IMG/VR virus record: IMGVR_UViG_3300005404_000013
Coordinates: 1 to 33,396 of that record
Source of the DNA: a virus
Taxonomy: Duplodnaviria; Caudoviricetes
Strand: one strand, 5' to 3'
Length of the DNA: 33,396 nt
This document shows positions 1 through 20,783 of the stretch, in pieces (the stretch's first letter is position 1; the number at the start of each line of letters is the position of its first letter). The notes under the pieces are model-generated. The model saw only the letters and a program-made list of their open reading frames with translations. It had not been told where the DNA came from and did not search any database. A program made the translations under genes and the position numbers.

Positions 1-2
1 AT

Positions 3-1600
3 ACAGAAACACTTTCAATTGCTGATTCTGCTATAGGTAATAGTGGTGCACCTGCTGTTACTTTTGATGTAAGTGGATTAGGTGGATTCCAGTATAATAA
101 CGTTGCTACAACTAACTCTGGTAATGGTAACAACGCACTGAAATTGAATGTTACTATTGATGGTGCTGGTGCTGCAACTGCTGTAACCGTAGGTAATAAC
201 GGAGGTTTGGCATATGCAATCAATAATACTATAACAATTGCAGACTCAGTTCTAGGTAATAATGGTGCTCCTGCTCTAACATGTGATGTTGCTACAATTG
301 TCGCTCCTCAAACATATAGTGGTGTTGCTGCAACCTCAACAACTGGTTCTGGTAGTGGAGCAACCTTTGATGTCACTATTGATGCTAATGGTGCTGTAAC
401 ACTTGCTGTTGCAACTGCTGCTGGACTAGGTTATGCAGAAGATGATCAATTACAGATTCAGGATTCTAATTTAGGTAATAGTGGTGCTGCAAATATAGAC
501 TTCCAGGTAAATACTCTGAAGGCACCTCCATTATACAGTAATGTACCAACTTCTACTAACGGTAGTGGTACAGGGTGTACGTTCCAAGTTACGATTAATA
601 CAGATGGTTCTGTTGCTAACTTAAACGTTACCGCCCCAGGAAATGGATATCAGGCTGGAGACACATTAACTATCGCTGATGCCAATGTTGGTAATAATGG
701 TGCTGCTGCAATTACTTGCAATATTGCTACTGTATCTGGTGGTGCTCTATACAATGGGGTCGCTCCACTTGGTACCACTGGTAACGGTACTGGTGGCACA
801 TTCAATATTACTGTGGATAGCGGTGGTGCTATCGCTTCTCTTGTAGTTGCAACTCCTGGTCGTGGATATGCTGCAGGTGAAGTTATTACTATTGCTGACT
901 CTACTATTGGTAATCGTGGTGCTGCTAACTTCACATTTGAGATAACTGCAACTCAAGGAATTACATATTCAGGTATAAGTGCATGGTCTACTAATGGATC
1001 TGGTATTAATGCTGTATTTGATGTAGTAATCGATAATTTGGGTGCTTTCACATCAATGACTGCAACCAATCGTGGACAGAATTTTGCTTTATCAGATCAA
1101 GTAACGATAACTGATGCAACTTTAGGTAATCAGGGTGCTGGTGGTCTTGTAATGGCTGTCGCTTCTATACAAGGTCATCAATATAATGGAGTTGCACCTA
1201 CAAGTAATGGTAATGGTGAGAATGCTACATTTAATATTACAATAGATGGTACTGGTGCTGCATCAGCAGTTGTTGTTGCTAATGCTGGTCAAGAACATCA
1301 AGTAGGTAATGTATTCACTGTAACTGATGCTCAGATTGGTAACTTTGGTGGTACTAATTTAACATTCGACGTTGCAAGTCTAGCAGCAATACAATATACC
1401 AATATTACTGCTGCTGGTGGATCTGGTGTTAATGCATCTATCAATGTTAACGTTGCTGCTAATGGTGCAACGACCATTGAGATGAATAAAACTGGTCGTA
1501 ATTACAAATCTAGTGAAGTACTTACTGTAACTGATTCTCAAATTGGTAGTTATGGATATTCCAATATAACTTTCAATATTGCAAGTGTAATTAACGTATT
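3..1600 (+). repeat. Seven complete plus one partial ~72-aa Gly/Asn-rich beta repeats in gp7
   Basis: Repeating unit YxGV..(T/S)xGxGxGATFxVTIDxxG..xxVxxxGxGYxxGDxLTIxDxxxGNxGAxxxTFxV, with starts at QYNNVAT, TYSGVAA, LYSNVPT, LYNGVAP, TYSGISA, QYNGVAP and QYTNITA. Confidence 0.9.
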
Positions 1601-4600: not shown

Positions 4601-7600
4601 GATTAAGAAGTTGAAGAATAATGAGTTTGGTTATGGTTATTCACATGACTATACTCTGAAACCAGAAATTACCTTCCCAATTAACTTACAACTATTCAAT
4701 ACATCAATACTTTCACAGATCAAAATCACCAATCCTGGTGCTGGATATACTTCTCCACCAGCAGTCATCGTAACAGGTGGTGGTGGATTTGGTGCAGAAG
4801 CAATTGCTGTTGTTAAGAACAATCGTCTATCAGAAATTCAAATTAAGAATCCTGGTGCTGGATATAGTTCTGAACCAGTTGTTACTCTTAAATCTGAGTT
4901 TAACTACGTTGTTAACACTGATTTAGGATATCTACAATTTAACTTCCCACATGGAATTACACAGGGTGCTGCTATAACATTCCGTGCAGATGATGTTGGT
5001 AACACTGTAGGTGTTCTACCTCAACCTGGATCTGCTGGTTTGACTGCATTGATTGAAAATCAAATCTATTATGCTATTTCTGGTGAAGCAAATTCACTTG
5101 AAACTGATCAATTAAGATTTGCTCTAACACCTGCTGATGCTGAATCTGGCAACTATATCACTTTCGTAGATGGTTCTGCTGGTACTGGTTCTGGTCGTCA
5201 AGTACTTCTAACTGAGGTATTTGGTGGTGAAGCAGAAGCAGTAGTTGAGACTTCCGTATTCTTGGAAGGTGAGAGAGTTTATATGGGTGATAGTGAAGAT
5301 CAAGCAACCATATTTGCAACTGTCTCTACAAATGATGGTTGGCAGATTGGACCTAAGATCTTAAAACTAATTGATGCTACAGGAACATTTGAGGCTGGAT
5401 ATAGAGTCAATGGTACTGTATCTCGTGCATCTGGTGTTATTGATAATGTATCACTTGCTAAAGGTGTATTGAATATTGGTTCATTAACTGAGACACCAGG
5501 TAAATTTATTGATGATGTTGGTAAACCATCAGAGATTGTTCAGAAAGTTCAAGACTCCTTCTTCTATCAGAACTTCTCATATGTTATCAAATCTCAGATT
5601 CCTATTAATGAGTGGAAGCAACAAATTCTTGATAATAACCACCCTGCTGGTTTCAATATGTTTGGTCAGTTACAACTGACTGGTGGTAAAGACGTATCTG
5701 GACGTAAAGTTGGAACTGAGTTTATTAAGCAGGTTAATATTAATGAGTACTCCAATGTTAATGAAGTAACATCATTTGCTGCTGCTCAACCAATATATTC
5801 TGATTTCAATAACACTGAAGTACTTTTCCGTAAGAAGCGTTTAACTAACTCTGAGGAAATTCTAACTTCTATTGTTAAGAAATTGGATGATATCTCTGGT
5901 GACTTTGATGGTATTAAGAAAGGATTCCCTCTTACTGTAGAGAACCAACAGGTTATCGTTAAGAATGACCAGTTGTTAATTACATTGAATGGTGTTATTC
6001 AGGCACCTATCGATTCATATGATATTGTTGGTGGACAGATTGTATTTAAAGAAGCACCAAAGGCACCTTCTAAGATTGTCTACAAAAACGTTAGTGTTGA
6101 GTTCTTAAATATCACTCGTTTGAATTTAAGTGATGTTGGTGGTATATATCCTGAAATTGGTTATACAGTACAGGGTGATAATAGTGATACTTATGCACTT
6201 GTTGTTGCTACTGGTACTAATACAGTTGATGTTGTAGATTTACAAAATACTGGTGGATCAGCAATATTCGAACTTAATGAAGTAGTTAGAGTAAGTGCTC
6301 TAGGATGGAGTGGAAGACTTGATTCAGTAACGCTACTTAGTGCAGAAAACATATATGAATTTGATGAGACAGTTATTGGTACAAATCGCAGTAAGAATAA
6401 TCCAACTGCTCAAATAACTGAAATCAACTTGAATGAAGATGGTACTGCTGGTAATGATATAGTTTTATCTAAGACTTCTGGTACTGCTAAGTATGAAACT
6501 GGAGTATATGATTTTGATCTTCAAGATATCATATATTCAAATCGTTCAAACGTTGCTGCAAGAATAACATCTCAGGCACCTTATCCTGTTGGTACAGATG
6601 AGAATAGAGGTATTCAGGAATTAACTTCTGGATCTACATTCTATGGTCTATTATTTGAACGTCTAGTTAGTCAATCTTATCCTAATATTCTTCTAGACAA
6701 TATTGCTAAATCTACTGTTACTCCAACTGAACTTTTAGATAATGAGGCTCGTATAAATGGTGACTTCCTAGACTTCGAAGCAATTCGTTCTTCAGAGGTT
6801 ACATATACAGATTTGTCAAATGGTGTATTCAGTGTTGGTGATACACTTAGAAATATTAAGGTAAGATACAATAACCCAATTCTCGGATCCACATACGGTA
6901 TTGCTGCTAACAGACATGCTGATGGTTCTCGTTCTATAACCAGATGTAGAGATGAGATTGTTGACTTTGGTGATGCTCAGATATCAGTAGATCATCCAGA
7001 TTTCTATTATCCAGGACAGTCACAGACTGATGGAAGATCACGTTTCCGTGATGCTTATAGAATGATAATCAAGAATAAGGATTATATCGTAGCACAAGCA
7101 TATGTGGATATGGTTGCTCAGTATCCATCAACTTCTATACCTAGTTCTACTAAGTGTAAGAGAGACATGGCATACTATATCGATGCAGTTGCATACGATA
7201 TGTACTCTGGTGGTAATAAGTATGCACGTAAATTTATTACAGAATACTTTAGTGGAGCAAGTCTACAGTATATCAATGCACAGGTAACTGAAACTGTTTG
7301 GGGTTATTCTAAGTGTAGTGAGTATATGAATCAGGTGGTTACTAACCAACTATCTGGTACTATCACTGTTGACGGAACACCATACACAATATACCAAGAT
7401 ACAACTCTAACTGAAGGTAGAGCAAATTACACTGATACTTCAGGTAGTACTATTAGCAATACAAATAATGGTGCTTGTGCTGATGTTCGTGCTGCTCTTG
7501 ATACACTTAAGAATACTATTAGTGAAACACTTCTACAGAATCAGAACTTTGATGATATTGAGGCAACTGAACCATCTTACAATGCATCTGAGACTACATG

Positions 7601-10600
7601 TCGTCGTGACTTAGGTCTCTTTGTTGATGCATTAGCACAAGATGTTAAGAGTGGTGGTAATCTATCAAGCGTTAAGTTTGTTCGTTCATACTACAATACT
7701 GATGGTACTATCATTTCAGGTCTTCATGCTTCACAAGCAGGTACATCAATAACTCATGCTCGTGATCTTTCGAAGAAAGCAATTAACAACTTACTCTATG
7801 TTAAAGATCTAAGTTCAACAGGTTACAACCTAAATGATCCTACCACTTATAGTGGTGGTGTTGCTCCTGCACAATACTATGATGTTAACTATGCATCTGG
7901 TAATAATCAGACAGCAACGAATTGTGCTAACGTTCAATCTACGATTGATACTCTAACTGGCATCGTTACAACTGCATTTACTGCAGGTAATCAGAATAAT
8001 ATTAATGCACTTGCAAGTATTGATGATGGATCATTCCGTGATGGTGAAACTGTTCGTGTTGTTAAGATTGCTTATAAGGATAAGTCAGCTGGACTATTTT
8101 CTACTGGTAATGTAATTAAAGGTGTATCATCTGGTGCTTCAACAACACTTGAAGGTGTTAACTCTGGTCTAGGATGGATATTCAGTGATAGTAGTGGTGT
8201 AACAGGAACATTTACAGACCGTGAATATATCACTAACTCTACTCTTGTTAATACTGGTGGTGTTACTCAGAGTGTTATCGTTACTAAGTCTGAGTTAGCT
8301 AATTCCAAAAAATCGCTAAAATTTGCTTCTGGTGCATATCTTAAAGCTGTAGATACATATGACTTTGACTTTGACACAGGAGATTTCACACTTGAAGCAT
8401 GGATTAATCCCACTTCTGTAAGTGGCACACAGATGTTGTTCGACTTACGTAGAACTGCTGGATCAGGTTTAAGAGTTAATATGTTCGATAAGGCTATCCG
8501 TGTTTACAACGGAAGCACTAGCATCATACTTTCTGGTGACGTATTTAATACAGCAAATACTTGGTATCACGTTGCAGTCATAAGAAATGGCGGTGTGATG
8601 CAAGCATATGTCAATGGAACACAAGCAGGTAGTAATGCTGCTAATAGTGATGACTTTGGATATGGTCCTTGTTACATTGGATCTGATTTAGCAGGTTCCA
8701 ATGACTTCACTGGTAACATGGATAATGTTATCGTAAGAAAAGGAATTGCAACATTCACTGCTGCATTTACACCTCCTGTTGCTCCAGATTTCACTGATGA
8801 TAAGATCGTTCTAGGTTTAACAGGTGAGACACCATTTATATGTTCTACTACTGAAACTTATGCTAAGTTCACTGGTCAAACTATATCATCTGCAACTGCT
8901 AAGAAGATCGATTATGATTCTAAGCGTGTAATTATTGAAGATGTAGATCTTGGTAGAGATGAGCATCGTCGTTGTGCACAACAAGTACAACAGAATGATA
9001 AGTGGATTTCTGAGACTGCCGTTGCAATGATGAAGGCTAAGTTCCCAGACTTTGTTATTCGTGGTGATGATCCTGCAACTAATAACTACCTTGGTACTTA
9101 CTACTGCTTGAGGGATACTGAAGAATATATTATCGATGCTATCATTAAAGATCTTAAGTATGGTGGTAACTACTACACCACTGTTGCTGCTAAGGGATAC
9201 TTAACTGCTACTGGTGGATTAGATTTCGTTAATAAAGAACTTCTACAAACTCTATACACTTGGCAGAAAGTTGGTGAAATTATCAATTTTGTAATCACAA
9301 CAACAAGTACTGATTTAGAGAACTATGAAAGTGTTAAGTATACAGAAAGATTACGTGTACCTAACAACTTCTCATCACCTGCATCTTCTAATGTACAAAA
9401 TGAAGTTACAGCATTAGTTGATGGTATTCTTGATATTCTTGGACCTACTGGTGCTAGATATCGTGATGCTGGTGATGCTATGTGGCAGAACCGTGATTTC
9501 ATTGCTGAAGAGGTTGCTGCATATATTCAGAATAAGTGGCAGGTTGAAATTGATGGTACAACTTATGATAAGTTGGAGATGCCTGGTTATGGTCAACCAT
9601 ACTGTGAAAGAGATATTAAAGATTTCGTTATTCCTGGTATAATTGCCGACTTGATTACTGGTGGTAATGCTGGTACTAATGAAGTAATTGACAGGTATTT
9701 GGATGAAGATCAAGATATCCTTCATGTAGATGAAGAACTTCTTCCAATGTTGGATGCTATTGAATTTACTAAGTTCTTATCTATTAAAGCAGCAAACCAA
9801 CTCTTAGTTCAATTTGGTAACTCACCTGATGCAAATCAAGGTCAGACAAATATAGATGATTACTATACTGCTGTATACACACAAATTATACCTAAGACAG
9901 TTCATAATACTGATGCTGATTGGGATACAGTAACCTTCCCACCTGATCCACAAGGATATGATCCAGGACGTTCTGATGGAGATAGGTTCCTAGACGCAGC
10001 TGATATGATCGAAAGAAATAAGGATCAGATTGCTTGGGAAGCAGTTCATACAATGAACGATACTGCTAGATTCCAAGATCATACTTATCCTGAAGGTCAA
10101 AGTCAGCAAGATTGTGTTGATGATGTTAATGATTATCTTGATGCAGTTATTCACGATCTTCGTCTTGGTGGTAACAGTAAGGTTTGGGATGCTTCAAATT
10201 ACTATATCGAACCAGAAAATAATGGTATTAAGCACATTGCTGGTGAAGAAGATGCATCTATCTACACATATAAGTTAGCAAGAGATATGGCAATTCTCAC
10301 AATGAGAAATGCTTTTGGACGTGATAACTTCTATGCTCAAGGTGTTAATGATGTTAATACATTAGTTGGTGCTATTGATCCTGGTGTTGATTCATACGAT
10401 CAGAACCCAGTCATTTCAAGACAGATTGATGCTGCTAATATTATCGAACGTAATATTAGATTCATCTCAGAAGAAGCAGTATATCGTGCAAATATTCAAT
10501 ATCCACAACTTCATATCACAAATGGTGATAAGTCTTGTGTAGATGATATATGTGACTTCCTACGTTCCATGACCTTCAATATGAAGTATGGTGGAAACAG

Positions 10601-13600
10601 TAGAGTTTGGGATGCTGCTGATTTCTATAGAAAGGCATCAACATATCATTTAACAAATCAGATGCCAATATATGCCTTCAATGAGGCAAGAGATATGGCA
10701 ATTCAGGCTATGCGTAATATTCCAATTATTGCACGTGGTCAGAATATTCATGGTAAGGTTCAAACATTCTTTGAGCAATTAGACTTCTTCCCTTACAACA
10801 GTAAGGAACGTGATAATCCTAAGATGGAAGCATCACAATTGGTTGGTGGTATTAACGTTAATAAGTCTGCTGATACCTATCAGTTAATTCTTAATAACTC
10901 TCGCTTCGTTGCTGAGGAAGCAGTATATCGTTATACAAGAGATAATGATCTAACACCTGTAACTGAGTTTACTCCATCTGATGCAACATACGATGCTGCA
11001 ACTGGTGATCTAGTATTATCATTACCATCACATAATTTAACTACTAATGATTCTATCTCGATAGATGCAAATTCATTAATCTTTACTTGTGACCAAGATG
11101 ATCATGCTTCAGAGCATAGTTATCCTCGTGAAACTGATCCTTCATATAATGAGAGATTAGCAATCACTGCTGTTGGTACTAATGCACATACACCAACAGA
11201 TGCAGATTACAATGCTGAAACTGGTGCATTAACTTTAGATATTGCAGCACATGGATTAAGACAATCTGAAGCATATACTGTATCTGATGCAGATTACAAT
11301 CCTAAGACTGGTATTTTAAAACTTGCTGTTGCTAATCACAACTTTAGAAATGGTGACAGAATTAAGTTCTCTCATGATGCATTAATCTTCCAGTGCGATA
11401 ATGATAACTACAATACAAACCACACATATCCACGTAAGGGTGTTGACCCATCTAGTGATAAGTGGTTACCTGTAAGTGCTGTAACTGATGGTACCTTTGA
11501 GGTACAGATTGGTAAGACTGCTGCTGCTGGTCAACATAAGTTTGTTGCTAACAGTCAGTTGAATGTTACTGATGCTGATTACAACCCAACAACAGGTATA
11601 ATGACACTTACCAGTGCTGCACATGGCATCAATAATGGTGAGTTCATTAAGATTACTGACGGTTCATTAGACTTTACTTGTACACAAGGTGGCGGTACTT
11701 ATAGTTACCCTCGTGCACAAGTATCACAACACACTGCAGATACAGGTACAACATATAATCCAACTACAGGTATATTGAGCATCACAACAAGTTCTGCTCA
11801 TAACATGGCAAATGGTGAGTGGATTAAGTTTGCTGATAACGCATTAACCTTCACTTGTGGAAGAGATAATAATGCTACTAACCATACATATCCTCGTTCA
11901 TCTGACCCTGCTAGTGGTAAGTTCTTAAGAATATCAAATGTTACAGCAAGTACATTTGAAGTCAAAGTACTTGAGATTACTCCTTCAACTAACACAAGTG
12001 TTCATGCATTTGTAACTGGTGCAAATAATGGAATTACACATGCTGACCCTGCTGCTGCAGGATATGTAAGAGCATTCAACGTTGCTGCCGACACATTCGA
12101 TGTTCAGGTATTAGCAAATGCTCCTTCTACAAACACAACAGTCCACACATATACTGGTGGAACTGCATCTAATGCAATCACTAGAGCAACATTTGAGAAG
12201 GCAAATGATTCTGTCTTAATTGAAGATGGTGCACTTACATTTACATGTGATGCTGATAATCATCAATCACAACATCCATATCCAAGATATACTGATTATG
12301 CTAGTGACGAGTGGTTACCAATAACAGAAGCATGGAACGATAGTTTCAAAGTCGATGTACATGTTGCTCCAGTTATTGAGTACACTCCAACTGCTGCTTC
12401 ATTCACTCCGACTACTGGTCTTCTTGAATTAACAATCGGATCTCATGATCTCTCTATTGACTCTAAAGTCATGATCAAGACTGGAGGATTAACCTTCCGT
12501 TGTGATCAGGATGGTCAGTCAAGTGATCATGCATATCCAAGAAATACAATTGATACACATACCGCTGGTGCTGGTACAACATATGATCCTGTTACAGGTC
12601 TTATGACTATTAACACAGGTACCACACATGGTATTAAGGTAGGTGACTGGGTTAAGTTTGATGATGGTGCTGTAACCTTCCGTTGTGATGAAGATAGTCA
12701 ATCATCTGATCATGCATATCCAAGATCTACTGACCCTGTAAGTGGTAAGTGGTTACAAGTTTCCGCTGTTGCTGCACAAACATTTACAGTTAAAGTCTTA
12801 ACAACTACACCTTCCACAAACGTAACTACTCATGTATTCCAGAGTGGTACTGCTAATGGTATTAAGCAAAAGCGTGATAGATCATTCGAACAGCATGTTC
12901 CTGTTACTGCAATAACTGGTACAACTATTACTCTTGACGTTGGTGTTTCTTCTAATAACACAACTCACGTATGGCAGTCTGCTCTTGCTGGTGCTATTCA
13001 ATTCAACCCACTATATCAGCATACATTTGTTTCTGCTGTAACTGGTGGTGTTAAGAGTCAAGACGGTACTGTTACCGTAAATGTTGGAACAACTGCTGCT
13101 GTTAATTACACTCCAACTGCTGCTACATATGATCCTGAGACAGGTGACATGTGGTTGAATGTTGGTTTACATAACCTAACTGAAGGAACGACAATTAAAC
13201 TTGCTGATGATTCCTTAACATTCACATGTAGTATGGATAATAATGGTACAAACCATACTTATCCAAGAGCATCAGATCCAGTTAGAGATACCAATATCCC
13301 AATTAAAGAAGTTGGTACTATATCTAAGACAGTTACAGGTGCACTTTATGATCCTAATTCTGGTAATTTAGTTCTTACTGTACCTGCTCATGGATTCTCC
13401 AATGGTAACAGAGTTAGAATTGCAGACGGATCATTAGTATTCACATGTGCTGCTGATCAACATGCTACATGGCATAGATATCCACGTCCAACAGATCCAT
13501 TCAGTGATGAGTGGTTAGTTATCTCTGGAGTATCAACAGATTCATTCCAAGTTAATATTGGTGTTTCTCCTAATCAATCCGCACATACATTTATCAGTGC

Positions 13601-16600
13601 TTCTAACAATGGATTAGAGAAGCAAGATGGATCAATCATCATCAACGTTGGTTCTACACCAAATATCAACTACGATGTATCAAATGCAACTTATGATCAT
13701 CAAACTGGTGTAATGGTTCTAACCATTGGATCACATGGATTGAAGACAGGTGATAAATTAAAACTCGGTGCTGAAACTCTGAAGTTTACATGTGCAATGG
13801 ATGGAAACTCCGCACAGAAGACTTATCCAAGAAGACTTGCAGGTGATGGTGGAACAGACCCATTCTTCAATACTTCTATTAATGTTGATGCTGTAGGATC
13901 AACACAGCATACTGCTACTGATGCAACTTATGTACCTACAACTGGTGTAATGACACTAGAAATTAGTGGTCATAACTTTAATGCATCAACAACTCATACT
14001 GTAACTGGTGCACAGTATAACGCTAAGACTGGTGTAATGAAGATGACTCTAAACGGTCATGGATTTACTCCTGGCGATCAGATCAAGTTTAGTCCTAATG
14101 CATTGACATTCCAGTGCACAATGGATAGTGGAGCATCAAACCATACTTATCCAAGATCTAGTGATCCTGTTGCTAATAAGTGGTTAACAATCACATCTGT
14201 CACAACAAACACATTCGAAGTTATTGTTGGTAAATCTCCAATAGTTCAGTGGGATGTATCTAATGCTGAGTACGATCAGGCAACTGGTCATATGATTCTT
14301 ACTACACCTGGTCCTCACGGTCTTCGTGGTCACTCAGATCATACAGTTACAAGTGCAACATACACTGCTTCAAGCGGTCTAATAGTTCTTACTATTCCTA
14401 ATCATGGATTCTCTAATGGTGATAAGATTAGGATTGCTGATCATTCATTAACATTCACATGTAATCAGGATAGTCATCAATCTGAGCATACATATCCAAG
14501 ATCTACTGATCCTTCAAGTGGTAAGTTTATTACTATATCAAACGTAACTACAAATACATTTGAGTGTAATATTCTTCAGGGAACTTCACCAACTAACACT
14601 ACAGCACATACATTTATCACTGCTGCGAAAAATGGCGTTAGACGTGCTGGTGAGACTGTTAAACTTGAAGCAAATTCATTAACATTCCGTTGTGCACAAG
14701 ATGACTATGCTACAGATCATGCATATCCAAGATCTAGTGACCCTGCATACAACGTTCCTCTTCATATAGTTCATTCTACAGAGAAGACAATCACTGTTGA
14801 TGTTGGTGTTGCTGCTAGTTCAAATCAGTTTGCTCACAACTTCGTTAATGCTGCTACTGGTCAAACAACACATACTATTACTGATGCATCATACACAGCA
14901 TCAAGTGGTGTAATGACTCTTACTGTTCCTAAGCATGGATTTGCATTAGGTGAACAGATTAAGATTGATAATAATGGAATCACATTCAAATGTGAGATGG
15001 ATGATTATGCTACAGATCATGCATATCCACGTGCTACTGACCCTGCTAGTGATAAGTGGTTGACTATATCTAACATTACTGAAAACACATTTGATGTTAA
15101 TGTTGGTAATACTCCACTATCCACCTATACTCCAACTGGTGCTTCATATAATCCAACTACAGGTAATCTACAAATTGTTATTGGATCACACACTCTTGCA
15201 GAAGGAGACAGTATTAAGTTAGCAGAGAATGCTATTACTTTCCGTTGTGATGAAGATGGACAAGCAAGTGATCATGCATATCCTAGAAGTCTAACTGATT
15301 CACATACTGCTGTAGCTGGTGGTACATCATACAATCCTACTACTGGTGTTTTGACTCTACAAACTGCTGGACCTCATGGTTTGGCAACTGGAGATTGGAT
15401 TCAGATCGCTCAGAACTCATTAACATTCAGATGTGATGAAGATGGTCAGGCAACAGATCATACATATCCTCGTTCATCTGACCCTGTAAATGGTCGTTGG
15501 TTGAAGATTACATACGTTAATGCAAGTAAGTTTAGTGTTGTTGTACTTGATGATATTCCTTCAACAAATACAACTACTCACGTATGTACAGCAACATCTG
15601 CTAGTGGAATCACATCTAAGCGTGACCCATCATACGATAATGCATTACCTATCATTGCTGCTGATTCTACTTCAATCACAATCAATGTTCTGAATACTGC
15701 ACCATCTACAAATACTACAACTCATGTATTCCAATCTGCACTTACTAACTCAGTAGTTGCAGGTGGTAACTATGCACATATGTTTGTAAGTTCTGTTGGT
15801 GGAGCACTTAAGAAACAGACTAAGGCATTAATTACTGGTGGTAATTATGCACATACATTTGTTTCTGCAACAAGTGGTGGAATTGAGAAGGCAAATGACT
15901 ATGTACAGATTGTAAATGATTCACTAGTCTTCCGTTGTGGTAAGGATGACTTTGGTTCACTTCATGCATATCCTCGTGCAACTGATCCGTTCAGTGGAAG
16001 ATGGTTACCAATATTCAATGTACAGACAAATGAATTTGATGTAAATGTTGGAATATCACAAAACGAATCTCAACACAATTTTGCATCTGCTGTTGCTAAT
16101 GGAATTCTAAGACAGAGTGGTACTGTCACAATTAACGTTGGTTATGATTCTCTTCCTGCTAATCAACATGCTCATGTATGGGTAGGAATGGAGAATAAGT
16201 TAACTGCTGCTGCAGGTACAACTTATGATCCAACAACAGGTGTAATGAAGATTAAAACTGCTTCTGCTCATAAGTTGGAGAATGATGAATGGGTTAAGTT
16301 TGATGATGATGCTGTAACCTTCACCTGCACACAAGGTGGTGGTAATCATTCATATCCACGTGCTACTGACCCAATGTCAGGTAGATGGTTGAAGGTTCAA
16401 AATGTAACCACTGACACATTCGAAGTTGTTGTTCTTGATGTTATTCCTTCAACTAACGTTACTGTTCATACATTTGTAACTGGTGCAAATAATGGTATCA
16501 CTAAGGCATGTGTTATCACTGGTGGAATTCATAAGCACACATTCGTAAGTGCAACTTCTGGTGCTATACAAACTGGTGGTGCTTACACTCATAAGTTTGT

Positions 16601-19600
16601 ACGTGCACATGATAATGCAATTAACAAACTTTATACAATTCCTGGTGGAAATCAGAATTGCTGTGATGACGTTGAGCGTATATTAAGAGGTGTTGCATAC
16701 CATATTGCATATGGTGGTAACAATGAAATATATGATATGGCAATGGAGTATGTTACTCAGACTCACCTCAACAATTACTTCGAGGAGAAATGGAGTCTTG
16801 GTATTATGACTCTAACCAAGGAGATCATCACTCAAATTATTAGAAATATTCAGACTCCTGTATATGGTAATCATGGTCTTCTACAGTATAGAGATACAAC
16901 AATCACTACTGATGTAACACAACCAGCATGTCCAACAGAGGTCGCTGCTGCAACTACATTAATTGACATCGTAATGGATGCAATTACTACCAATGCAGTT
17001 AGTGGTACTCGCACATTACCTACAGGTTCAGGTAATGGTCCTTGTGCTAATGTCGCTGCAACAATAACTACCATGTTTGGTATTATTACAGATACCATTA
17101 GTTCTAATGCAAGTTTGGATGGTGTTGGTCGTCAGATACCATCTATCTGGCCATGTCATTATCACGGTGATGTTGCTGAGAGAGATCTAACAGTTACATA
17201 TCAAACTGCAGCTGCAACTTGGAATCAGACATGTGCAACTACTGCTTCTGCTATAAGCACATTATTTGATGTTGTTGTTAATACAATAGAAAGTGCTAAG
17301 ACTAATACAAACCACTTAAGTGGTTTAACAAGAACTGTACCACCATACGCTAATACACTTTATCAGCATTATACTTGCTATAACGTTGTATCTGCAATGA
17401 CAACTCAGTTCGATTTAATTATCGATACTCTTGGTGCTGGTACATACTCTAATCGTAACGTTGCACATTACTTAAGATTTAATGATAAAGCAATCACTGA
17501 TCGTGCTCTTGCTGCAACTCAAGCAAATTATCCTGTAGGAGATAATCCAGATCTAGCATTCTTTAAGAACGTTCTTGAAGCTGGTTTATATGATTTAACT
17601 ACAAATGGTAATGCTTCTGCGTTTGAACTTGCTGGAACATGGTTCGATGGTGAAGGTCAATTTATCGCTTATCCTACAGTAGATAGAATTCGTTTACTCT
17701 ATGGTTTGAATAAGGTAAGAGAATATTGTAAGGAAGTTGTTCAAGATCCAACTAATGCTGGATGGAATACATATGCTGTTTATCGTTATCCTGAAGTAAA
17801 TGGATATCGTCGTCACGTAGAATGGGATCAGGAAACTACAGAATTTAATTTTGATAGTTCACTAAACTGCTTAGAATTTGCTATAGAAAGAGCAACATTC
17901 CCAACAGATAACTTGGTAACATTTAATGCTGCCACTGATGTAATTAATTACTCTAATCAGTATGATGAAGGTGTTGATTACAATACTGATCCTGCTCTAG
18001 TAAATCTAACTCCAACAATTGAAGTTGGATATGAAAGAGTAGAGAATCGTGCACGAATTAATAGAACTAACTTCTTCCGTCGTGGTGATGTTGTTAAGTA
18101 TGTTCTTGCATCTGCTCAATCACTATCTGGTGCTAATGATCAAGATTACTACTACGTCCTCAATGCACAACCACAGTGGTTTGAGATTGCTCGTATGCCT
18201 AATCATGATGCAAGATACCGTGCATTTGCATTAGATACAACTAATGCTGGTAACCAGCAATTCTTCACAGTTCGTCGCTCTGGAATTGATCGTGTTGCTA
18301 ACACTTACGGTGTACGTGATATTGATCAACCAATTACTGCTGGATTCAATATTGCTGATGTTCTAGTTGGTACAACAACTGGTGCATCTGCTGAAATCTC
18401 ATCTAGTTTCATTAATAGTGCGAATGTCATTAAGACCTTCAAGTACTATGGTTTAAATACCATGTCTGCCACCGCATTTACAAACGGTGAGCAAGTTCAG
18501 GTACAAGGTGCAACTGCTAATAATGGTTATGTAATGCAGAGAGTTCTTAGAGATGAGAATAACTTAGGTTGGATTAAACTTGAACTTGTTCAGGGAACTA
18601 TTTCCGCTGGTCAAACTATTGAAGGTGTTGATTCTGGTGCAACTGCTGTTGTAACTTCAGTCATAGAAGATCGTCTATTAATCAATGAGAAGGTAGGTGA
18701 ATTCCTACAAGGTGATTGGTTGTTTAAAGATACAACTGCTACAGAAGCATACGCAAGTGCTTATGATAATAAGTCAGGTGTTCTTACAGATAATAGCGGT
18801 GGTCGTGTAACGATAGACGTTGAAACTATTACTGGTGCTTTCACATCTGGTGATATTATCTACGGATCTAAGACAGAAAAAATTCTCGACTTTGTAGGTA
18901 TTACAGACGGTGGATCTCCAATTACAATTAACACCTACGTACATGGTGAGAAGGTTAGAAAATTAACTCTATCTCAGGTAATTACGGATAGTGAATATTC
19001 TGGTACATTTGTCGCTGGTGATAGAGTTTATCTACTTCAGGGAACTACACCAACCAATCCTGGCTGGTGGGGATATGTAACCAAGTATGATTACAGACCT
19101 GACGATAACGTTAACGATCTCTATATTGCTGGATTACAAAATTACTGGACAGGTGATGCATCAGAACCAACAACTGAACCTGATGGATCTTTAGCTGCAA
19201 CTGCTGGATATAACATTGGTAAGTTTGATAACTTACAGAACTTCCCATTAATCTATGCAACAGCATCAAATTACACTGAGACAGGTTATTCATCATACGG
19301 TAAGATTATTGCTATTGAACAATCTGGTATTACTGCTCGTTGCTGGTTAGAAGATGTACAAGGTGATTTTGTAGATAACATGACAGTTAAGTCCGATAAT
19401 GGATGGATTGCTGGTGTTACATCTGCTAAGAGTTTAATTGGACGTGTTGATCGTTACTTCCGTGGATTTGACGGTACGCAGACACAGTTTAATCTTACAA
19501 TCTCTAATGGTCAGCAATATCTACCTGATCCTGCTGGTCACATGTTGATCTTCGTTAATGGAATTCTACAACCACCTGGTGCTACTGGTGCTTACACTGC

Positions 19601-20783
19601 ATCCTCAGACATTATCACATTCGCTGAACCACCTGAAGTTGGATCTGATTTCATCGGATACTACATTGGTAAATTACGTCAGTTAGATGATATCTCCTTC
19701 GAGTTTGACTCATTGAGATCTTCATTCAACCTTAAGCAGAGTGGTGGATTCTACTCACTAACACTAACCGAAGGTGTTCAGTCTAACGTGATTAAACCAG
19801 AGAATAATATCATGGTTTCACTGAATGGTGTTATTCAGGAACCAGGCGTAGGTTACGAACTGGTTGGTTCTAGAATCATCTTCGCTGAAGTTCCACGTGC
19901 GGGTACAACATTCGTTGGATTCTCATACATTGGTTCTGACGCAGACGTTATTGCTGCTACAGTCGTACCTCCAATTGAGGCAGGTGACCAACTCTTCATC
20001 GAAGGTGAAGATGAGATTGTTCCACGTGAGGTTGCTCTAATTGAGTCTTCTAACTCTCTTGTAACATTCGAATACACTGGCACAGTTAAAGGACGTAATG
20101 CAGAAGCATTAGCAAGTGTTCGCTCTGGTACCATTGATCAAGCAATCATTACCAACCCAGGTAACGGTTATACTCAACGTCCTTCAGTTAGTGTTATTTC
20201 ATCTACTGGATTTGATGGTCGTGTACGTGCATTAATGGGCGTTGCTAGAATCGATGTTGGATCTGCAGGTATTGGATATGCTCAACCAATCGTTGAGGTA
20301 CAAAATACCGTTGAAGATACATTTGTATCTCCAGATGGACCTCCAGTTAACGGTGGATTTGATGTCTACGCAGGTGAAGGAATCAATGCTCAAACTGGTG
20401 AACCAATTGTCGTTGAAGCTGGTTTGATTGCTATCACACGTAATCCTTCCAACGTAACAGTTAACCAAGGTCAGACTGCTAGCTTCACAGTTGTCGCACA
20501 CTTCAGTGCTGCAGATGGTGATCCTGCTGAGACAACAGTCGGACTCAACTATCAGTGGCAAGTCAAGCAGTACGGTGAAACTGCATGGTCTAATATCACT
20601 GGTGCTACAGCAGCAACATATAGCAGTAATTCAACCATACAGGCTGATGATGCAGATGAATTCCGTGTTGCAATCACTTACGCTGGTGCAACTCCTGTGT
20701 ACTCCAACTCCGCAGTTCTATCTGTACAAACTGGTAACACAGTAGTCTCGAACTTCACTCCTGACCAAATCTTTCAACAATAA
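3..20783 (+). CDS. gp7: Giant baseplate wedge initiator (T4 gp7-like) multidomain virion protein; 5'-truncated by the window (>6,926 aa)
   Basis: Frame 3 is open from nt 3 (TETLSIADSAIGNSGAPAVTFDV...) to TAA at 20781-20783, so the TTG at 144 is not the true start. Contains the motif QDSFFYQNFSYVIKSQIPINEWKQQILDNNHPAGFNMFG (5550-5667), comparable to the T4 gp7 'IKS..P..W......HPxGF' motif, and lies upstream of gp8 in T4 wedge gene order. Confidence 0.85.
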   Translation, partial: TETLSIADSAIGNSGAPAVTFDVSGLGGFQYNNVATTNSGNGNNALKLNVTIDGAGAATAVTVGNNGGLAYAINNTITIADSVLGNNGAPALTCDVATIVAPQTYSGVAATSTTGSGSGATFDVTIDANGAVTLAVATAAGLGYAEDDQLQIQDSNLGNSGAANIDFQVNTLKAPPLYSNVPTSTNGSGTGCTFQVTINTDGSVANLNVTAPGNGYQAGDTLTIADANVGNNGAAAITCNIATVSGGALYNGVAPLGTTGNGTGGTFNITVDSGGAIASLVVATPGRGYAAGEVITIADSTIGNRGAANFTFEITATQGITYSGISAWSTNGSGINAVFDVVIDNLGAFTSMTATNRGQNFALSDQVTITDATLGNQGAGGLVMAVASIQGHQYNGVAPTSNGNGENATFNITIDGTGAASAVVVANAGQEHQVGNVFTVTDAQIGNFGGTNLTFDVASLAAIQYTNITAAGGSGVNASINVNVAANGATTIEMNKTGRNYKSSEVLTVTDSQIGSYGYSNITFNIASVINVFDQTKQNNGTASLYNATNAIIDSTIKKFGTDSIKFQAENHYSVTDINLNGKEWTLQAWFRIESTIHTAANSYPTFFFTEPNDASNPSNELRLFIDGDQTSGDYGKVKIAAAGVEVMETASATIWTNFAADAWVHIAFVKDEPTLGNFTYTVFSNGTQIGQWSTTTDIPVDNVYVGGLLTPTATTSLLGNVDDFVIDATAQYTGSSFTSPTAEIPVRTNDNSIALVKLDREHLKRGTHTLSGLSDHTSAVIVEDSNWTYNSTTGPVVTNWAIGPGGLQILDYSDINSQLTPGTYTFDNDSFIYGSKTSTVPTPGGKKLIISPVVTPKYYIKDASYTKIDSVQQMVFNQDVKFTKGTILQQYNDSDVVGAFGTIVETPVGEIATPGLGTTYKIGKIYPAGATFNNTDKFKTTTAADTESNVISDIVFTAERVEAEWKAATAYTAGDVVYANGKFYAATTNATSGATRPSHSTGNQSDGGVSWDYTSNATDALELDLANTAYPVPRQPKWKELVIHEVGDEVYNGRQLYRCTVSGRTSRVAPTHTTGTATDGTVTWEWRQTFDPLSSYARFKTYDAAEPYYQIQVNEIYHDSNSIVNDSLSIGGTITVNPKVGEPTVLQINNINSIKKVTIQAILDKTILLSTGGQTRTEDVYCVANSRHNFSAGNILFTEGFSTSEFNGSFFVKEVFSSRDFTFTTRAIPSAEPAFENASIARVDIYTKHPTLMLIRNHNYIFDMSDSSNAGYFLSFSQDNEFKLEYSFNNIERSGTPGVFDGTNAPFVKFKIDGQVTNISYYFDPSRIGSNSPVGAQSFIDVKKTPFDGTYTVTKIIDDTNFQFPLAFEPEFTQANVGNDDQGVAYSKYSTTSLKAIGPINAIKLISAGGFYKKLPIISDIASFRQIERVNITAGGSEYAVGTYDQVPIIGDGEGGLCRIEVTVDETIGSGTISSVTVTDPGKGYKTASIDVDGITGILGPQLTGSGAELAVIIPDEGTGASVFLTGKNIGKIKKLKNNEFGYGYSHDYTLKPEITFPINLQLFNTSILSQIKITNPGAGYTSPPAVIVTGGGGFGAEAIAVVKNNRLSEIQIKNPGAGYSSEPVVTLKSEFNYVVNTDLGYLQFNFPHGITQGAAITFRADDVGNTVGVLPQPGSAGLTALIENQIYYAISGEANSLETDQLRFALTPADAESGNYITFVDGSAGTGSGRQVLLTEVFGGEAEAVVETSVFLEGERVYMGDSEDQATIFATVSTNDGWQIGPKILKLIDATGTFEAGYRVNGTVSRASGVIDNVSLAKGVLNIGSLTETPGKFIDDVGKPSEIVQKVQDSFFYQNFSYVIKSQIPINEWKQQILDNNHPAGFNMFGQLQLTGGKDVSGRKVGTEFIKQVNINEYSNVNEVTSFAAAQPIYSDFNNTEVLFRKKRLTNSEEILTSIVKKLDDISGDFDGIKKGFPLTVENQQVIVKNDQLLITLNGVIQAPIDSYDIVGGQIVFKEAPKAPSKIVYKNVSVEFLNITRLNLSDVGGIYPEIGYTVQGDNSDTYALVVATGTNTVDVVDLQNTGGSAIFELNEVVRVSALGWSGRLDSVTLLSAENIYEFDETVIGTNRSKNNPTAQITEINLNEDGTAGNDIVLSKTSGTAKYETGVYDFDLQDIIYSNRSNVAARITSQAPYPVGTDENRGIQELTSGSTFYGLLFERLVSQSYPNILLDNIAKSTVTPTELLDNEARINGDFLDFEAIRSSEVTYTDLSNGVFSVGDTLRNIKVRYNNPILGSTYGIAANRHADGSRSITRCRDEIVDFGDAQISVDHPDFYYPGQSQTDGRSRFRDAYRMIIKNKDYIVAQAYVDMVAQYPSTSIPSSTKCKRDMAYYIDAVAYDMYSGGNKYARKFITEYFSGASLQYINAQVTETVWGYSKCSEYMNQVVTNQLSGTITVDGTPYTIYQDTTLTEGRANYTDTSGSTISNTNNGACADVRAALDTLKNTISETLLQNQNFDDIEATEPSYNASETTCRRDLGLFVDALAQDVKSGGNLSSVKFVRSYYNTDGTIISGLHASQAGTSITHARDLSKKAINNLLYVKDLSSTGYNLNDPTTYSGGVAPAQYYDVNYASGNNQTATNCANVQSTIDTLTGIVTTAFTAGNQNNINALASIDDGSFRDGETVRVVKIAYKDKSAGLFSTGNVIKGVSSGASTTLEGVNSGLGWIFSDSSGVTGTFTDREYITNSTLVNTGGVTQSVIVTKSELANSKKSLKFASGAYLKAVDTYDFDFDTGDFTLEAWINPTSVSGTQMLFDLRRTAGSGLRVNMFDKAIRVYNGSTSIILSGDVFNTANTWYHVAVIRNGGVMQAYVNGTQAGSNAANSDDFGYGPCYIGSDLAGSNDFTGNMDNVIVRKGIATFTAAFTPPVAPDFTDDKIVLGLTGETPFICSTTETYAKFTGQTISSATAKKIDYDSKRVIIEDVDLGRDEHRRCAQQVQQNDKWISETAVAMMKAKFPDFVIRGDDPATNNYLGTYYCLRDTEEYIIDAIIKDLKYGGNYYTTVAAKGYLTATGGLDFVNKELLQTLYTWQKVGEIINFVITTTSTDLENYESVKYTERLRVPNNFSSPASSNVQNEVTALVDGILDILGPTGARYRDAGDAMWQNRDFIAEEVAAYIQNKWQVEIDGTTYDKLEMPGYGQPYCERDIKDFVIPGIIADLITGGNAGTNEVIDRYLDEDQDILHVDEELLPMLDAIEFTKFLSIKAANQLLVQFGNSPDANQGQTNIDDYYTAVYTQIIPKTVHNTDADWDTVTFPPDPQGYDPGRSDGDRFLDAADMIERNKDQIAWEAVHTMNDTARFQDHTYPEGQSQQDCVDDVNDYLDAVIHDLRLGGNSKVWDASNYYIEPENNGIKHIAGEEDASIYTYKLARDMAILTMRNAFGRDNFYAQGVNDVNTLVGAIDPGVDSYDQNPVISRQIDAANIIERNIRFISEEAVYRANIQYPQLHITNGDKSCVDDICDFLRSMTFNMKYGGNSRVWDAADFYRKASTYHLTNQMPIYAFNEARDMAIQAMRNIPIIARGQNIHGKVQTFFEQLDFFPYNSKERDNPKMEASQLVGGINVNKSADTYQLILNNSRFVAEEAVYRYTRDNDLTPVTEFTPSDATYDAATGDLVLSLPSHNLTTNDSISIDANSLIFTCDQDDHASEHSYPRETDPSYNERLAITAVGTNAHTPTDADYNAETGALTLDIAAHGLRQSEAYTVSDADYNPKTGILKLAVANHNFRNGDRIKFSHDALIFQCDNDNYNTNHTYPRKGVDPSSDKWLPVSAVTDGTFEVQIGKTAAAGQHKFVANSQLNVTDADYNPTTGIMTLTSAAHGINNGEFIKITDGSLDFTCTQGGGTYSYPRAQVSQHTADTGTTYNPTTGILSITTSSAHNMANGEWIKFADNALTFTCGRDNNATNHTYPRSSDPASGKFLRISNVTASTFEVKVLEITPSTNTSVHAFVTGANNGITHADPAAAGYVRAFNVAADTFDVQVLANAPSTNTTVHTYTGGTASNAITRATFEKANDSVLIEDGALTFTCDADNHQSQHPYPRYTDYASDEWLPITEAWNDSFKVDVHVAPVIEYTPTAASFTPTTGLLELTIGSHDLSIDSKVMIKTGGLTFRCDQDGQSSDHAYPRNTIDTHTAGAGTTYDPVTGLMTINTGTTHGIKVGDWVKFDDGAVTFRCDEDSQSSDHAYPRSTDPVSGKWLQVSAVAAQTFTVKVLTTTPSTNVTTHVFQSGTANGIKQKRDRSFEQHVPVTAITGTTITLDVGVSSNNTTHVWQSALAGAIQFNPLYQHTFVSAVTGGVKSQDGTVTVNVGTTAAVNYTPTAATYDPETGDMWLNVGLHNLTEGTTIKLADDSLTFTCSMDNNGTNHTYPRASDPVRDTNIPIKEVGTISKTVTGALYDPNSGNLVLTVPAHGFSNGNRVRIADGSLVFTCAADQHATWHRYPRPTDPFSDEWLVISGVSTDSFQVNIGVSPNQSAHTFISASNNGLEKQDGSIIINVGSTPNINYDVSNATYDHQTGVMVLTIGSHGLKTGDKLKLGAETLKFTCAMDGNSAQKTYPRRLAGDGGTDPFFNTSINVDAVGSTQHTATDATYVPTTGVMTLEISGHNFNASTTHTVTGAQYNAKTGVMKMTLNGHGFTPGDQIKFSPNALTFQCTMDSGASNHTYPRSSDPVANKWLTITSVTTNTFEVIVGKSPIVQWDVSNAEYDQATGHMILTTPGPHGLRGHSDHTVTSATYTASSGLIVLTIPNHGFSNGDKIRIADHSLTFTCNQDSHQSEHTYPRSTDPSSGKFITISNVTTNTFECNILQGTSPTNTTAHTFITAAKNGVRRAGETVKLEANSLTFRCAQDDYATDHAYPRSSDPAYNVPLHIVHSTEKTITVDVGVAASSNQFAHNFVNAATGQTTHTITDASYTASSGVMTLTVPKHGFALGEQIKIDNNGITFKCEMDDYATDHAYPRATDPASDKWLTISNITENTFDVNVGNTPLSTYTPTGASYNPTTGNLQIVIGSHTLAEGDSIKLAENAITFRCDEDGQASDHAYPRSLTDSHTAVAGGTSYNPTTGVLTLQTAGPHGLATGDWIQIAQNSLTFRCDEDGQATDHTYPRSSDPVNGRWLKITYVNASKFSVVVLDDIPSTNTTTHVCTATSASGITSKRDPSYDNALPIIAADSTSITINVLNTAPSTNTTTHVFQSALTNSVVAGGNYAHMFVSSVGGALKKQTKALITGGNYAHTFVSATSGGIEKANDYVQIVNDSLVFRCGKDDFGSLHAYPRATDPFSGRWLPIFNVQTNEFDVNVGISQNESQHNFASAVANGILRQSGTVTINVGYDSLPANQHAHVWVGMENKLTAAAGTTYDPTTGVMKIKTASAHKLENDEWVKFDDDAVTFTCTQGGGNHSYPRATDPMSGRWLKVQNVTTDTFEVVVLDVIPSTNVTVHTFVTGANNGITKACVITGGIHKHTFVSATSGAIQTGGAYTHKFVRAHDNAINKLYTIPGGNQNCCDDVERILRGVAYHIAYGGNNEIYDMAMEYVTQTHLNNYFEEKWSLGIMTLTKEIITQIIRNIQTPVYGNHGLLQYRDTTITTDVTQPACPTEVAAATTLIDIVMDAITTNAVSGTRTLPTGSGNGPCANVAATITTMFGIITDTISSNASLDGVGRQIPSIWPCHYHGDVAERDLTVTYQTAAATWNQTCATTASAISTLFDVVVNTIESAKTNTNHLSGLTRTVPPYANTLYQHYTCYNVVSAMTTQFDLIIDTLGAGTYSNRNVAHYLRFNDKAITDRALAATQANYPVGDNPDLAFFKNVLEAGLYDLTTNGNASAFELAGTWFDGEGQFIAYPTVDRIRLLYGLNKVREYCKEVVQDPTNAGWNTYAVYRYPEVNGYRRHVEWDQETTEFNFDSSLNCLEFAIERATFPTDNLVTFNAATDVINYSNQYDEGVDYNTDPALVNLTPTIEVGYERVENRARINRTNFFRRGDVVKYVLASAQSLSGANDQDYYYVLNAQPQWFEIARMPNHDARYRAFALDTTNAGNQQFFTVRRSGIDRVANTYGVRDIDQPITAGFNIADVLVGTTTGASAEISSSFINSANVIKTFKYYGLNTMSATAFTNGEQVQVQGATANNGYVMQRVLRDENNLGWIKLELVQGTISAGQTIEGVDSGATAVVTSVIEDRLLINEKVGEFLQGDWLFKDTTATEAYASAYDNKSGVLTDNSGGRVTIDVETITGAFTSGDIIYGSKTEKILDFVGITDGGSPITINTYVHGEKVRKLTLSQVITDSEYSGTFVAGDRVYLLQGTTPTNPGWWGYVTKYDYRPDDNVNDLYIAGLQNYWTGDASEPTTEPDGSLAATAGYNIGKFDNLQNFPLIYATASNYTETGYSSYGKIIAIEQSGITARCWLEDVQGDFVDNMTVKSDNGWIAGVTSAKSLIGRVDRYFRGFDGTQTQFNLTISNGQQYLPDPAGHMLIFVNGILQPPGATGAYTASSDIITFAEPPEVGSDFIGYYIGKLRQLDDISFEFDSLRSSFNLKQSGGFYSLTLTEGVQSNVIKPENNIMVSLNGVIQEPGVGYELVGSRIIFAEVPRAGTTFVGFSYIGSDADVIAATVVPPIEAGDQLFIEGEDEIVPREVALIESSNSLVTFEYTGTVKGRNAEALASVRSGTIDQAIITNPGNGYTQRPSVSVISSTGFDGRVRALMGVARIDVGSAGIGYAQPIVEVQNTVEDTFVSPDGPPVNGGFDVYAGEGINAQTGEPIVVEAGLIAITRNPSNVTVNQGQTASFTVVAHFSAADGDPAETTVGLNYQWQVKQYGETAWSNITGATAATYSSNSTIQADDADEFRVAITYAGATPVYSNSAVLSVQTGNTVVSNFTPDQIFQQ
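1670..2240 (+). other. LamG/ConA-like lectin beta-sandwich domain 1 in gp7
   Basis: KKFGTDSIKF...EWTLQAWF...WVHIAFVK...VFSNG...YVGG...GNVDDFVI...YTGSSFTSPT follows the Laminin_G_3 pattern seen in phage proteins. Confidence 0.8.
2890..3265 (+). repeat. Two CBM5/12 (ChtBD3)-like Trp/Tyr carbohydrate-binding modules in gp7
   Basis: AEWKAATAYTAGDVVYANGKFYAA...PSHSTG...DGGVSWDY and PKWKELVIHEVGDEVYNGRQLYRC...PTHTTG...DGTVTWEW. Confidence 0.65.
8305..8820 (+). other. LamG/ConA-like lectin domain 2 in gp7
   Basis: SLKFASGAYL...FDFDTGDFTLEAWINP...WYHVAVIRNGG...YVNG...YIGS...FTGNMDNV...FTPP. Confidence 0.85.
10959..16628 (+). repeat. 18 nested ~105-aa His/Cys beta-domain repeats (YxPxTG..HG..GD.IK..LTFxCxxD..HxYPRxxDP..W..I..F.V.V..HxF)
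   Basis: I counted 18 N-terminal 'Y/F-x-x-x-T/S-G' openers, 18 'YPR' cores and 18 C-terminal 'H-x-F/W/Y/C' closers over 1,890 codons. Confidence 0.92.
19440..19935 (+). repeat. Two 'FDG/S..F.L...LNG(I/V)xQxP...Y.....I.FxExP' modules, with a third copy at ~5890-6080
   Basis: FDGTQTQFNLT..VNGILQPP..ITFAEPP; FDSLRSSFNLK..LNGVIQEPG..IIFAEVP; FDGIKKGFPLT..LNGVIQAP..IVFKEAP. Confidence 0.8.
20420..20735 (+). other. C-terminal Ig-like (I-set-like) domain of gp7
   Basis: ITRNPSNVTVNQGQTASFTVVA...LNYQWQ...WSNITGATAATY...DDADEFRVAIT...SNSAVLSV. Confidence 0.8.

Follow-up and report, generated by a model that had tools for sequence, protein, structure and literature searches.

Recursive self-insertion, in which a small domain is inserted into copies of itself, is already known from Si3 of the cyanobacterial RNA polymerase beta' subunit (RpoC2). 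Si3 has been described as eight SBHMs, four of them discontinuous (PMC10895346), and as eight domains with six levels of insertion; six levels is also the depth of the deepest nest shown in the sections at hand of a 2026 survey of 2.7 million classified domains (PMC13114784). Here we describe a nest of 18 barrel domains in a virion protein, the product of a giant gp7-type gene of a T4-like cyanomyovirus. The counterpart of this gene in phage P-SSM4 was reported as a tail-fibre-like fusion to a baseplate wedge initiator (PMC1079782, section 9). The DNA is the IMG/VR record IMGVR_UViG_3300005404_000013, a 33-kb fragment of an uncultured virus which is 18% complete, and by the window we mean the whole stretch of 33,396 nucleotides (nt) that was analysed. 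An original prediction, made from the letters alone, had proposed that the units are not tandem but lie inside one another like brackets and that the chain folds into a branched structure; we asked whether an independent parse, the relatives and structural models agree with it.

The nest of barrel units

Within positions 10959-16631, in frame with the giant gene, 18 copies of a domain of about 103 amino acids (aa) are encoded. All 18 YPR motifs of the entire protein fall here, and the openers also number 18. With a profile of 103 columns, made from insert-free units taken from 77 sequences (321 units in its last version), a reading that was blind to any stack gave 31 fragments, or 30 after one merge (18 openers and 12 resumptions). 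These 30 close in last-in-first-out order with no orphan and no unit left open, as the prediction had it for the closers. A clean parse was obtained in none of 200,000 full shuffles and in 5 of 200,000 shuffles of the resumptions only, and on these grounds the units are nested and not tandem. First-in-first-out pairing of the same fragments fails. Two short resumptions (unit 1 after AVGT and unit 8 after EVGT) were missed by the blind pass and come from a pushdown parse only.

The pushdown parser, which presupposes the nesting grammar, placed 1703 of the 1880 residues on profile columns and returned the predicted tree except for three edges: 3/4, 13/15 and 10/18 were read as siblings, with a depth of 8. 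Once a closing-strand rule was added, every edge was reproduced, 1[2[3[4[5]],6[7]],8[9,10[11[12[13[14,15[16[17]]]]],18]]], with a depth of 9. Homologues decide between the two readings. From 127 open reading frames (ORFs) we obtained 112 distinct arrays, which are akin to one another, some contigs having been fetched twice. Among the homologues, 116 of the 137 sites that are occupied twice carry an extra closing stretch of at least four residues (median 5), compared with 47 of the 721 that are occupied once. The sibling reading was rejected on this evidence, which supports an insertion site after HxF; the few pairs with a long first tail have no such stretch. The gene and the units, with the insertion site of each child in brackets (sites a to e are defined below the list), are as follows.

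144..20783, + strand: giant gene of the gp7 type (baseplate wedge / virion structural), whose 5' end is cut off by the window; ORF of 6879 aa
10959..16631, + strand: unit 1, the root barrel; pieces 10959-11183, 13059-13100 and 16575-16631; children 2 (c) and 8 (d)
11184..13058, + strand: unit 2; pieces 11184-11270, 12201-12377 and 13005-13058; children 3 (a) and 6 (d)
11271..12200, + strand: unit 3; piece 11271-11555 and closing strand 12189-12200; child 4 (e)
11556..12188, + strand: unit 4; pieces 11556-11720 and 12042-12188; child 5 (b)
11721..12041, + strand: unit 5, a leaf, from opener search and profile reading
12378..13004, + strand: unit 6; pieces 12378-12542 and 12867-13004; child 7 (b)
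12543..12866, + strand: unit 7, a leaf, from opener search and profile reading
13101..16574, + strand: unit 8; pieces 13101-13319, 13623-13661 and 16521-16574; children 9 (c) and 10 (d)
13320..13622, + strand: unit 9, a leaf, from opener search and profile reading
13662..16520, + strand: unit 10; pieces 13662-13901 and 16113-16199, closing strand 16506-16520; children 11 (c) and 18 (e)
13902..16112, + strand: unit 11; pieces 13902-13988 and 15891-16112, about 630 aa apart; child 12 (a)
13989..15890, + strand: unit 12; pieces 13989-14240 and 15837-15890; child 13 (d)
14241..15836, + strand: unit 13; pieces 14241-14333 and 14643-14861, closing strand 15816-15836; children 14 (a) and 15 (e)
14334..14642, + strand: unit 14, a leaf, from opener search and profile reading
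14862..15815, + strand: unit 15; pieces 14862-15116 and 15762-15815; child 16 (d); one barrel in the AlphaFold2 model
15117..15761, + strand: unit 16; pieces 15117-15290 and 15618-15761; child 17 (b)
15291..15617, + strand: unit 17, a leaf at depth 9; FCCH/endosialidase-type beta-barrel in the model
16200..16505, + strand: unit 18, a leaf, from opener search and profile reading

The five reused insertion sites were recovered as loops a (after HG(L/F)), b (after YPR), c (after VG(T/S)), d (after VNVGxxP) and e (after HxF), and one child was found in 1402 of the 1451 occupied sites. Units 1, 2, 8, 10 and 13 have two children each, units 5, 7, 9, 14, 17 and 18 are leaves in the independent parse too, and a single profile covers all 18. 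Discontinuous hosts are closed last-in-first-out round complete inserts of their own family, as in recursive insertion, and the closing lengths are nearly fixed at 28, 15, 21 and 18 residues. Two details of the prediction need correction: four of its 18 HxF closers are HxY, HxW or HxC, whereas its 18 openers and YPR cores stand, and the array ends at about 16631 and not at 16628. The units share 39% identity on average (24-62%), the longest exact DNA repeat is 28 nt, and the identical tree is found on contigs of separate assemblies (L001/L077, L092, L093 and L094). We consider the nested, branched architecture to be very likely.

Split halves and the barrel fold

Do the halves of a split unit belong to their bracket partners? 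In 62 arrays the cross-split covariation of bracket-paired units correlated with that of unsplit units at r of 0.46, 0.40, 0.32 and 0.38 (sites a, b, c and d), above all of 20 within-protein re-pairings per site, which reached at most 0.26, 0.21, 0.18 and 0.18. A nearest-neighbour pairing, limited to front pieces with a 70% match, chose the bracket partner in 17 of 19 cases at b (7.2 by chance), 5 of 5 at c (1.6), 62 of 104 at a (33.2) and 11 of 44 at d (6.7). The nearest-neighbour results are mixed, however, and part of them speaks against bracket pairing: the bracket partner was best in just 5 of 14 window cases, its ranks were 2/6, 1/6, 1/6 and 14/120, and at site d the count was near chance (75 of 379, 68.5 expected).

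AlphaFold2 models agree with the brackets. Window units 15[16[17]] (31 alignment rows) were modelled with a mean predicted local distance difference test (pLDDT) score of 88.8, the closers at 82-92. Because the alignment for the outer window units 11-14 had only 3 rows, the second model was made on a relative, L054, whose seven-unit subtree uses all five sites (30 rows; pLDDT 84.6). Two alignments (A1 and A3) had been dropped before folding, as their rows paired pieces of different units, and the rows that were used had been filtered for agreement with the parse; the models therefore demonstrate a feasible and confidently predicted bracket fold, but do not single it out as the only one. Among the best 50 fold-search rows for the 15-17 model, 28 correspond to leaf 17, and eight span 1..317 or 4..317 and align 69-81 residues of a single barrel (best 9jlf_E, Z 7.4, root mean square deviation (rmsd) 2.7), from which we conclude that the front piece of unit 15 and its last-out closer are predicted to form one barrel round two children. 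Another 13 rows run from unit 17 to residue 277-279, one is a poor two-domain match, and unit 16 was chosen by none. For the L054 model, 44 of 50 rows in one search coincide with one bracket span (19 leaf 13, 15 the d-split unit 8, 5 leaf 11, 3 the e-split unit 9, 1 leaf 10 and 1 the a-split unit 12) and the other 6 extend further, on multi-domain targets; in another search 46 of 50 coincide with one span, 18 of them on the e-split unit and ending at its short closing strand. All seven units were matched over their bracket range, including the after-HxF site and the three-child node, although this three-child root (1..743) was matched by two weak rows alone (Z 3.2 and 2.8), which again tells against the pairing. 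As far as these matches can tell, nothing refuted the original prediction. Each split unit is thus predicted to close with its bracket partner into one barrel whose ends lie together, and the adjacent termini and branched fold of the original prediction are supported at the level of these models. What the prediction lacked are the known barrel fold, the Si3 precedent and the helical nest round the tree.

The best fold matches are the FCCH domain of UBA1 (Z 8.0, rmsd 2.6, 78 residues aligned, UBA1 215-296) and the endosialidase barrel of phage phi92 (Z 7.8, rmsd 2.1, 80 aligned); in both models FCCH, endosialidase and reductase-type barrels lead. FCCH is the nearest named Atlas cluster, and the Pfam family PF16190 reaches 30.2 bits summed over the region against a cut-off of 29.5, no single stretch passing by itself. 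Matches in BFVD are led by cyanophage structural proteins. By sequence a leaf has no match in the PDB at E up to 10, and Foldseek found none in the PDB at E 0.001. No SBHM or HABAS domain of RNA polymerase is among the fold-search matches listed, and the units may yet be akin to them. A Pfam scan of the giant protein found neither an E1 adenylation domain nor a sialidase domain.

Conservation is alike in 404 parents and 282 leaves: C43, Y54, P55, R56 and D59 are kept in 98-100%, H24 in 96-98%, D46 and H92 in 88-95% and H52 in about 80%. Cys43, Asp46, His52 and His92 are all present in 487 of 686 units, and the covarying pairs 44-91, 45-90, 48-93 and 51-95 set the His92 strand beside the Cys43 hairpin. 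The Cys-Asp-His-His cluster, which would link the core hairpin to the closing strand, is a candidate metal clasp; perhaps the metal site is completed only when the closer returns.

Helical hosts, locus and relatives

The tree is itself set in a nest of helical domains, H4[H5[H6[H7[tree]]]], of which three orphan last helices are stacked after H7 closes.

9456..17435, + strand: helical domain H4, outermost; front 9456-9821, last helix 17376-17435
9978..17297, + strand: helical domain H5, host of H6; front 9978-10310, last part 17157-17297
10416..17108, + strand: helical domain H6, host of H7; front 10416-10718, last helix 17043-17108
10860..16985, + strand: helical domain H7, the phycobiliprotein-like host of the tree; pieces 10860-10931 and 16632-16985

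On the sequence reading, the total depth over 9456-17435 is 13, four helical levels plus nine of barrels. A profile of 29 helical units matched 97 PDB sequences, the best 60 of which are all phycobiliproteins (best E 1.9e-6), with the significant match limited to the first 60 positions. The invariant Cys of the helical units (29 rows) is in register with bilin Cys82/84 (window 7032-7541; alignment A7), and it is possible that these domains are substrates for phage bilin lyases. For cpeT there was no match on the record, which at 18% completeness is uninformative on the phage. A second Cys occurs near the last helix in 24 of 34 helical domains and aligns, without significance, near beta-153/155. 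Further phycobiliprotein-like domains lie upstream (window 6909-7976 and 8955-9446), where a two-piece H1 hosts H2 and H3 is unsplit, and a probable H8 starts at 17454.

The frame of the giant ORF is open from nt 3 and the start of the gene therefore lies upstream of the window. PHROG 701 is the family that the ORF matches. Next downstream come a YHYH-domain gene and then gp9-, gp8- and VrlC-type genes, the gene order of P-SSM4 (gp7-gp9-gp8-VrlC) and P-RSM6. In P-SSM4, gp6 lies 5' of the counterpart, the window itself stopping short of it; this is the position of a T4-type gp7, between gp6 and gp9/gp8 of the baseplate cluster. The gp7 label rests on the GenBank annotation of relatives and on the P-SSM4 section cited above (PMC1079782). 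A leaf unit matches 263 records in the phage collection, all of them cyanophages or marine viruses, and LamG and CBM5/12-like matches are present upstream of the nest in the same protein. In T4, gp7 is present in six copies per baseplate. We think it probable that the nest sits at the periphery of the virion. At the N-terminal side of the same protein, window 144-1600 encodes Gly/Ala/Thr-rich repeats of about 74 aa with a G.G.G.TF.VT motif, apparently in tandem, and the YHYH-domain structural gene (Pfam PF14240; window 20797-22377) directly follows the giant gene, as in P-RSM6.

The prediction proposed a comparison of trees across gp7 homologues, and the trees do differ. All 80 arrays that have both flanks inside the locus are nested, and the 62 clean ones among them, with every unit at 50 bits or more, show 34 shapes with 2-30 units and a depth of up to 11; head-to-tail root pairs number 4 among 1226 units. 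In many homologues a simpler blind parse ended with orphans or with resumptions out of register. Nested arrays are also present in the isolates P-SSM4 (11 units), P-RSM6 and Sf-CH3. The relative L002 is 66% identical over 1859 residues and amounts to the window array plus 980 aa, nine units in six places; the window array has no stretch of 30 aa or more that L002 lacks. Its additions include a unit in the d loop of unit 3, two units in the b and d loops of unit 13 and a unit inserted near the a loop of unit 18, and one insert lies at site e. Between L109 and L117, at 95% identity, the difference is a single unit of 111 aa at site a; gaps of roughly the size of a unit or subtree were seen in 8 of 9 compared pairs, and in the remaining one there was none at the threshold.

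Some arrays look different. In L038, L053, L056, L065 and L074 (P-RSM6) an array starts on a late fragment without a front piece and stops on an opener that is never closed, which would fit a root unit that is circularly permuted or interrupted by interleaved helical domains. In L003, L004, L005, L034 and L074 there are 2-4 separate barrel nests per protein, with helical domains between the nests in L074. In S-SSM7 (L075) a gp9-like gene separates two genes labelled gp7, and Sf-CH3 (L076) has a three-unit nest in a structural gene outside the gp6-gp8 cluster.

How could such trees arise and be kept? Units cluster by the site they occupy (61 label changes against a shuffled mean of 113 and lowest of 101, FastTree), to which the common ancestry of orthologous units contributes, and not by phage (144 against 149). 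The junction between units 6 and 7 is 80% identical over 91 nt to that between 16 and 17, and a divergence peak of 13-19% against 5% lies beside the L109/L117 indel. We hypothesize that recombination remodels the trees, a child being copied along with the flanks of its parent: through a double crossover between a unit and a child-bearing homologue, child and junction would be transferred together and in balance, which would explain the recurrence of the five sites. Transposon-like insertion was rejected, as junction repeats are at most 1 nt at the three gaps examined. Since the barrel ends would meet, a finished child may restore the interrupted loop of its host and folding could run from leaves to root, each parent being completed as the chain returns. 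The ratio of non-synonymous to synonymous substitution (dN/dS) against three relatives is 0.20-0.23 in the tree and 0.11-0.18 in the flanks, which shows purifying selection. Against L093, the four units with the highest ratio are leaves, and leaves 7 (12543-12866) and 9 (13320-13622), at 0.75 and 0.55, stand well above the others, on small counts.

Function and comparison with known systems

The explanation that we favour, with a probability of roughly 55%, is that the barrel tree projects from the baseplate and grips host surface sugars at many points. For the multivalent sugar binding taken by itself the chances are about even; we propose it because the endosialidase barrel has a sugar site, LamG and CBM-like domains occur in the same chain and the tips vary. 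In K1F this barrel is reported to be a polysialic-acid binding site and a hotspot of host discrimination (10.1101/2025.10.06.680778). Several results weigh against the explanation. Identity to the endosialidase barrel is just 10-16%, Z of 7-8 is within the range that the tool calls common, and the fold is shared by reductases and EF-Tu. The invariant C43, Y54, P55, R56 and D59 look structural, H52 is Lys in about 17% of the units, and leaves 17 and 18 have low dN/dS, the per-unit values coming from one pair. As to the origin of the trees, raised divergence beside an indel is clear in the closest pair alone, and no recent within-gene duplicate was found in 107 arrays, the highest identity being 73%. 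A fuller picture, in which a grammar of five sites with one child each, metal clasps that the bracket partner alone can complete and a stalk of captured phycobiliprotein folds make a programmable dendrimer, 13 levels deep, whose multivalent binding to host surfaces is tuned by the exchange of whole subtrees between close relatives, we offer only tentatively.

Could the same branched fold be a scaffold, spacer or shield at the baseplate rim, its barrels without ligand? This main rival is a real possibility, though a clearly smaller one: the conserved residues resemble those of a core and are as well preserved in leaves as in parents, clean arrays range from 2 to 30 units, and the near-fixed closing lengths suit rigid joints. 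However, branching multiplies tips more than reach, the nearest phage barrel of known role binds sugar, and the four top dN/dS values belong to leaves. It is unlikely that the barrels serve mainly to bind zinc or iron for metal capture or mimicry, with as many as 18 sites on one chain; the invariant Cys with its Asp and two His, and the covariation that brings the His92 strand next to the Cys43 hairpin, would fit this, but His52 is often Lys while the other residues are retained, and a structural clasp accounts equally well for the cluster.

Somewhat less likely still, the sequence may be nested while the native protein is partly domain-swapped or interdigitated, as in Si3, so that its true topology departs from the brackets. 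Swapping of elements is described for some recursively inserted HABAS domains (PMC11515920), open halves here would wait for up to about 1,800 residues, and the 13 rows noted above extend from unit 17 into the second piece of unit 16. Those rows gain only 1-4 residues, however (the K1F endosialidase aligns over 79 residues to 144..254 and 80-83 to 144..277), covariation favours bracket partners at four sites, and both models follow the brackets. About as little can be said for a tolerated, near-neutral expansion, in which a domain with joined ends would invade its own loops through recombination while the phage gains little: the many shapes and the differences of whole units between close relatives suit it, but dN/dS is about 0.2 across the tree, though purifying selection could reflect the need to fold alone, and the array takes up 5.7 kb of packaged genome. 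An assembly artefact or a chance pattern in a tandem repeat, which the fragmentary record might suggest, is refuted by the shuffles, the same tree in separate assemblies, the nests of isolates and the lack of long exact repeats.

The tree is a candidate adsorption structure for ocean cyanomyoviruses. The nest is also a natural template for genetically encoded branched proteins, and the relatives supply dozens of natural variants with known insertion sites, so that two questions can be put to the test: by what means deeply discontinuous domains avoid mispairing as they fold, and through which events domain insertions originate and spread, the latter a point left unexplained in the Si3 literature as far as the sections at hand go (PMC11515920).

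Among the known systems, the helical hosts share a profile match and the register of the bilin Cys with phycobiliprotein subunits (PF00502), but they are nested in a virion protein. The FCCH domain of E1 enzymes (PF16190; UBA1/UBA6) resembles the barrels in fold (Z 7.4-8.1, rmsd 2.5-2.8, 76-79 residues); about 25 of 105 unit residues are left unaligned, and FCCH occurs once per chain, in an E1 enzyme, which the gp7 protein is not. The endosialidase barrel (K1F, phi92; Z 6.9-7.8, rmsd 2.1-2.5, 79-83 residues) is likewise part of a phage tail protein, but stands in a single copy beside a propeller enzyme, and the likeness is one of fold. P-SSM4 orf080 and P-RSM6 CPXG_00128 (PHROG 701) agree in gene order and domain content, each phage with a tree of its own; the section of PMC1079782 on the P-SSM4 counterpart does not describe nesting, and we found no description of nesting in a phage or virion protein in the open-access literature, supplements being outside the scope of that search. 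The closest architecture is that of Si3, in which one small beta domain is likewise inserted into its copies, hosts take several inserts, and the whole is set in a loop of another domain. The gp7 nest is not a member of Si3: it lies in a virion protein and not in the trigger loop of an RNA polymerase beta' or any enzyme, the top fold matches of its units, known here from sequence and models, are closed FCCH-type barrels, and its insertions use five fixed sites. RNA polymerase insertions are described as ancient (PMC11515920), whereas the gp7 tree changes shape between phages that are 95% identical. With 18 units on nine levels, 13 with the helical hosts, and up to 30 units in relatives, the gp7 nest is deeper, larger and more variable than the Si3 precedent, and it is found in a virion protein.

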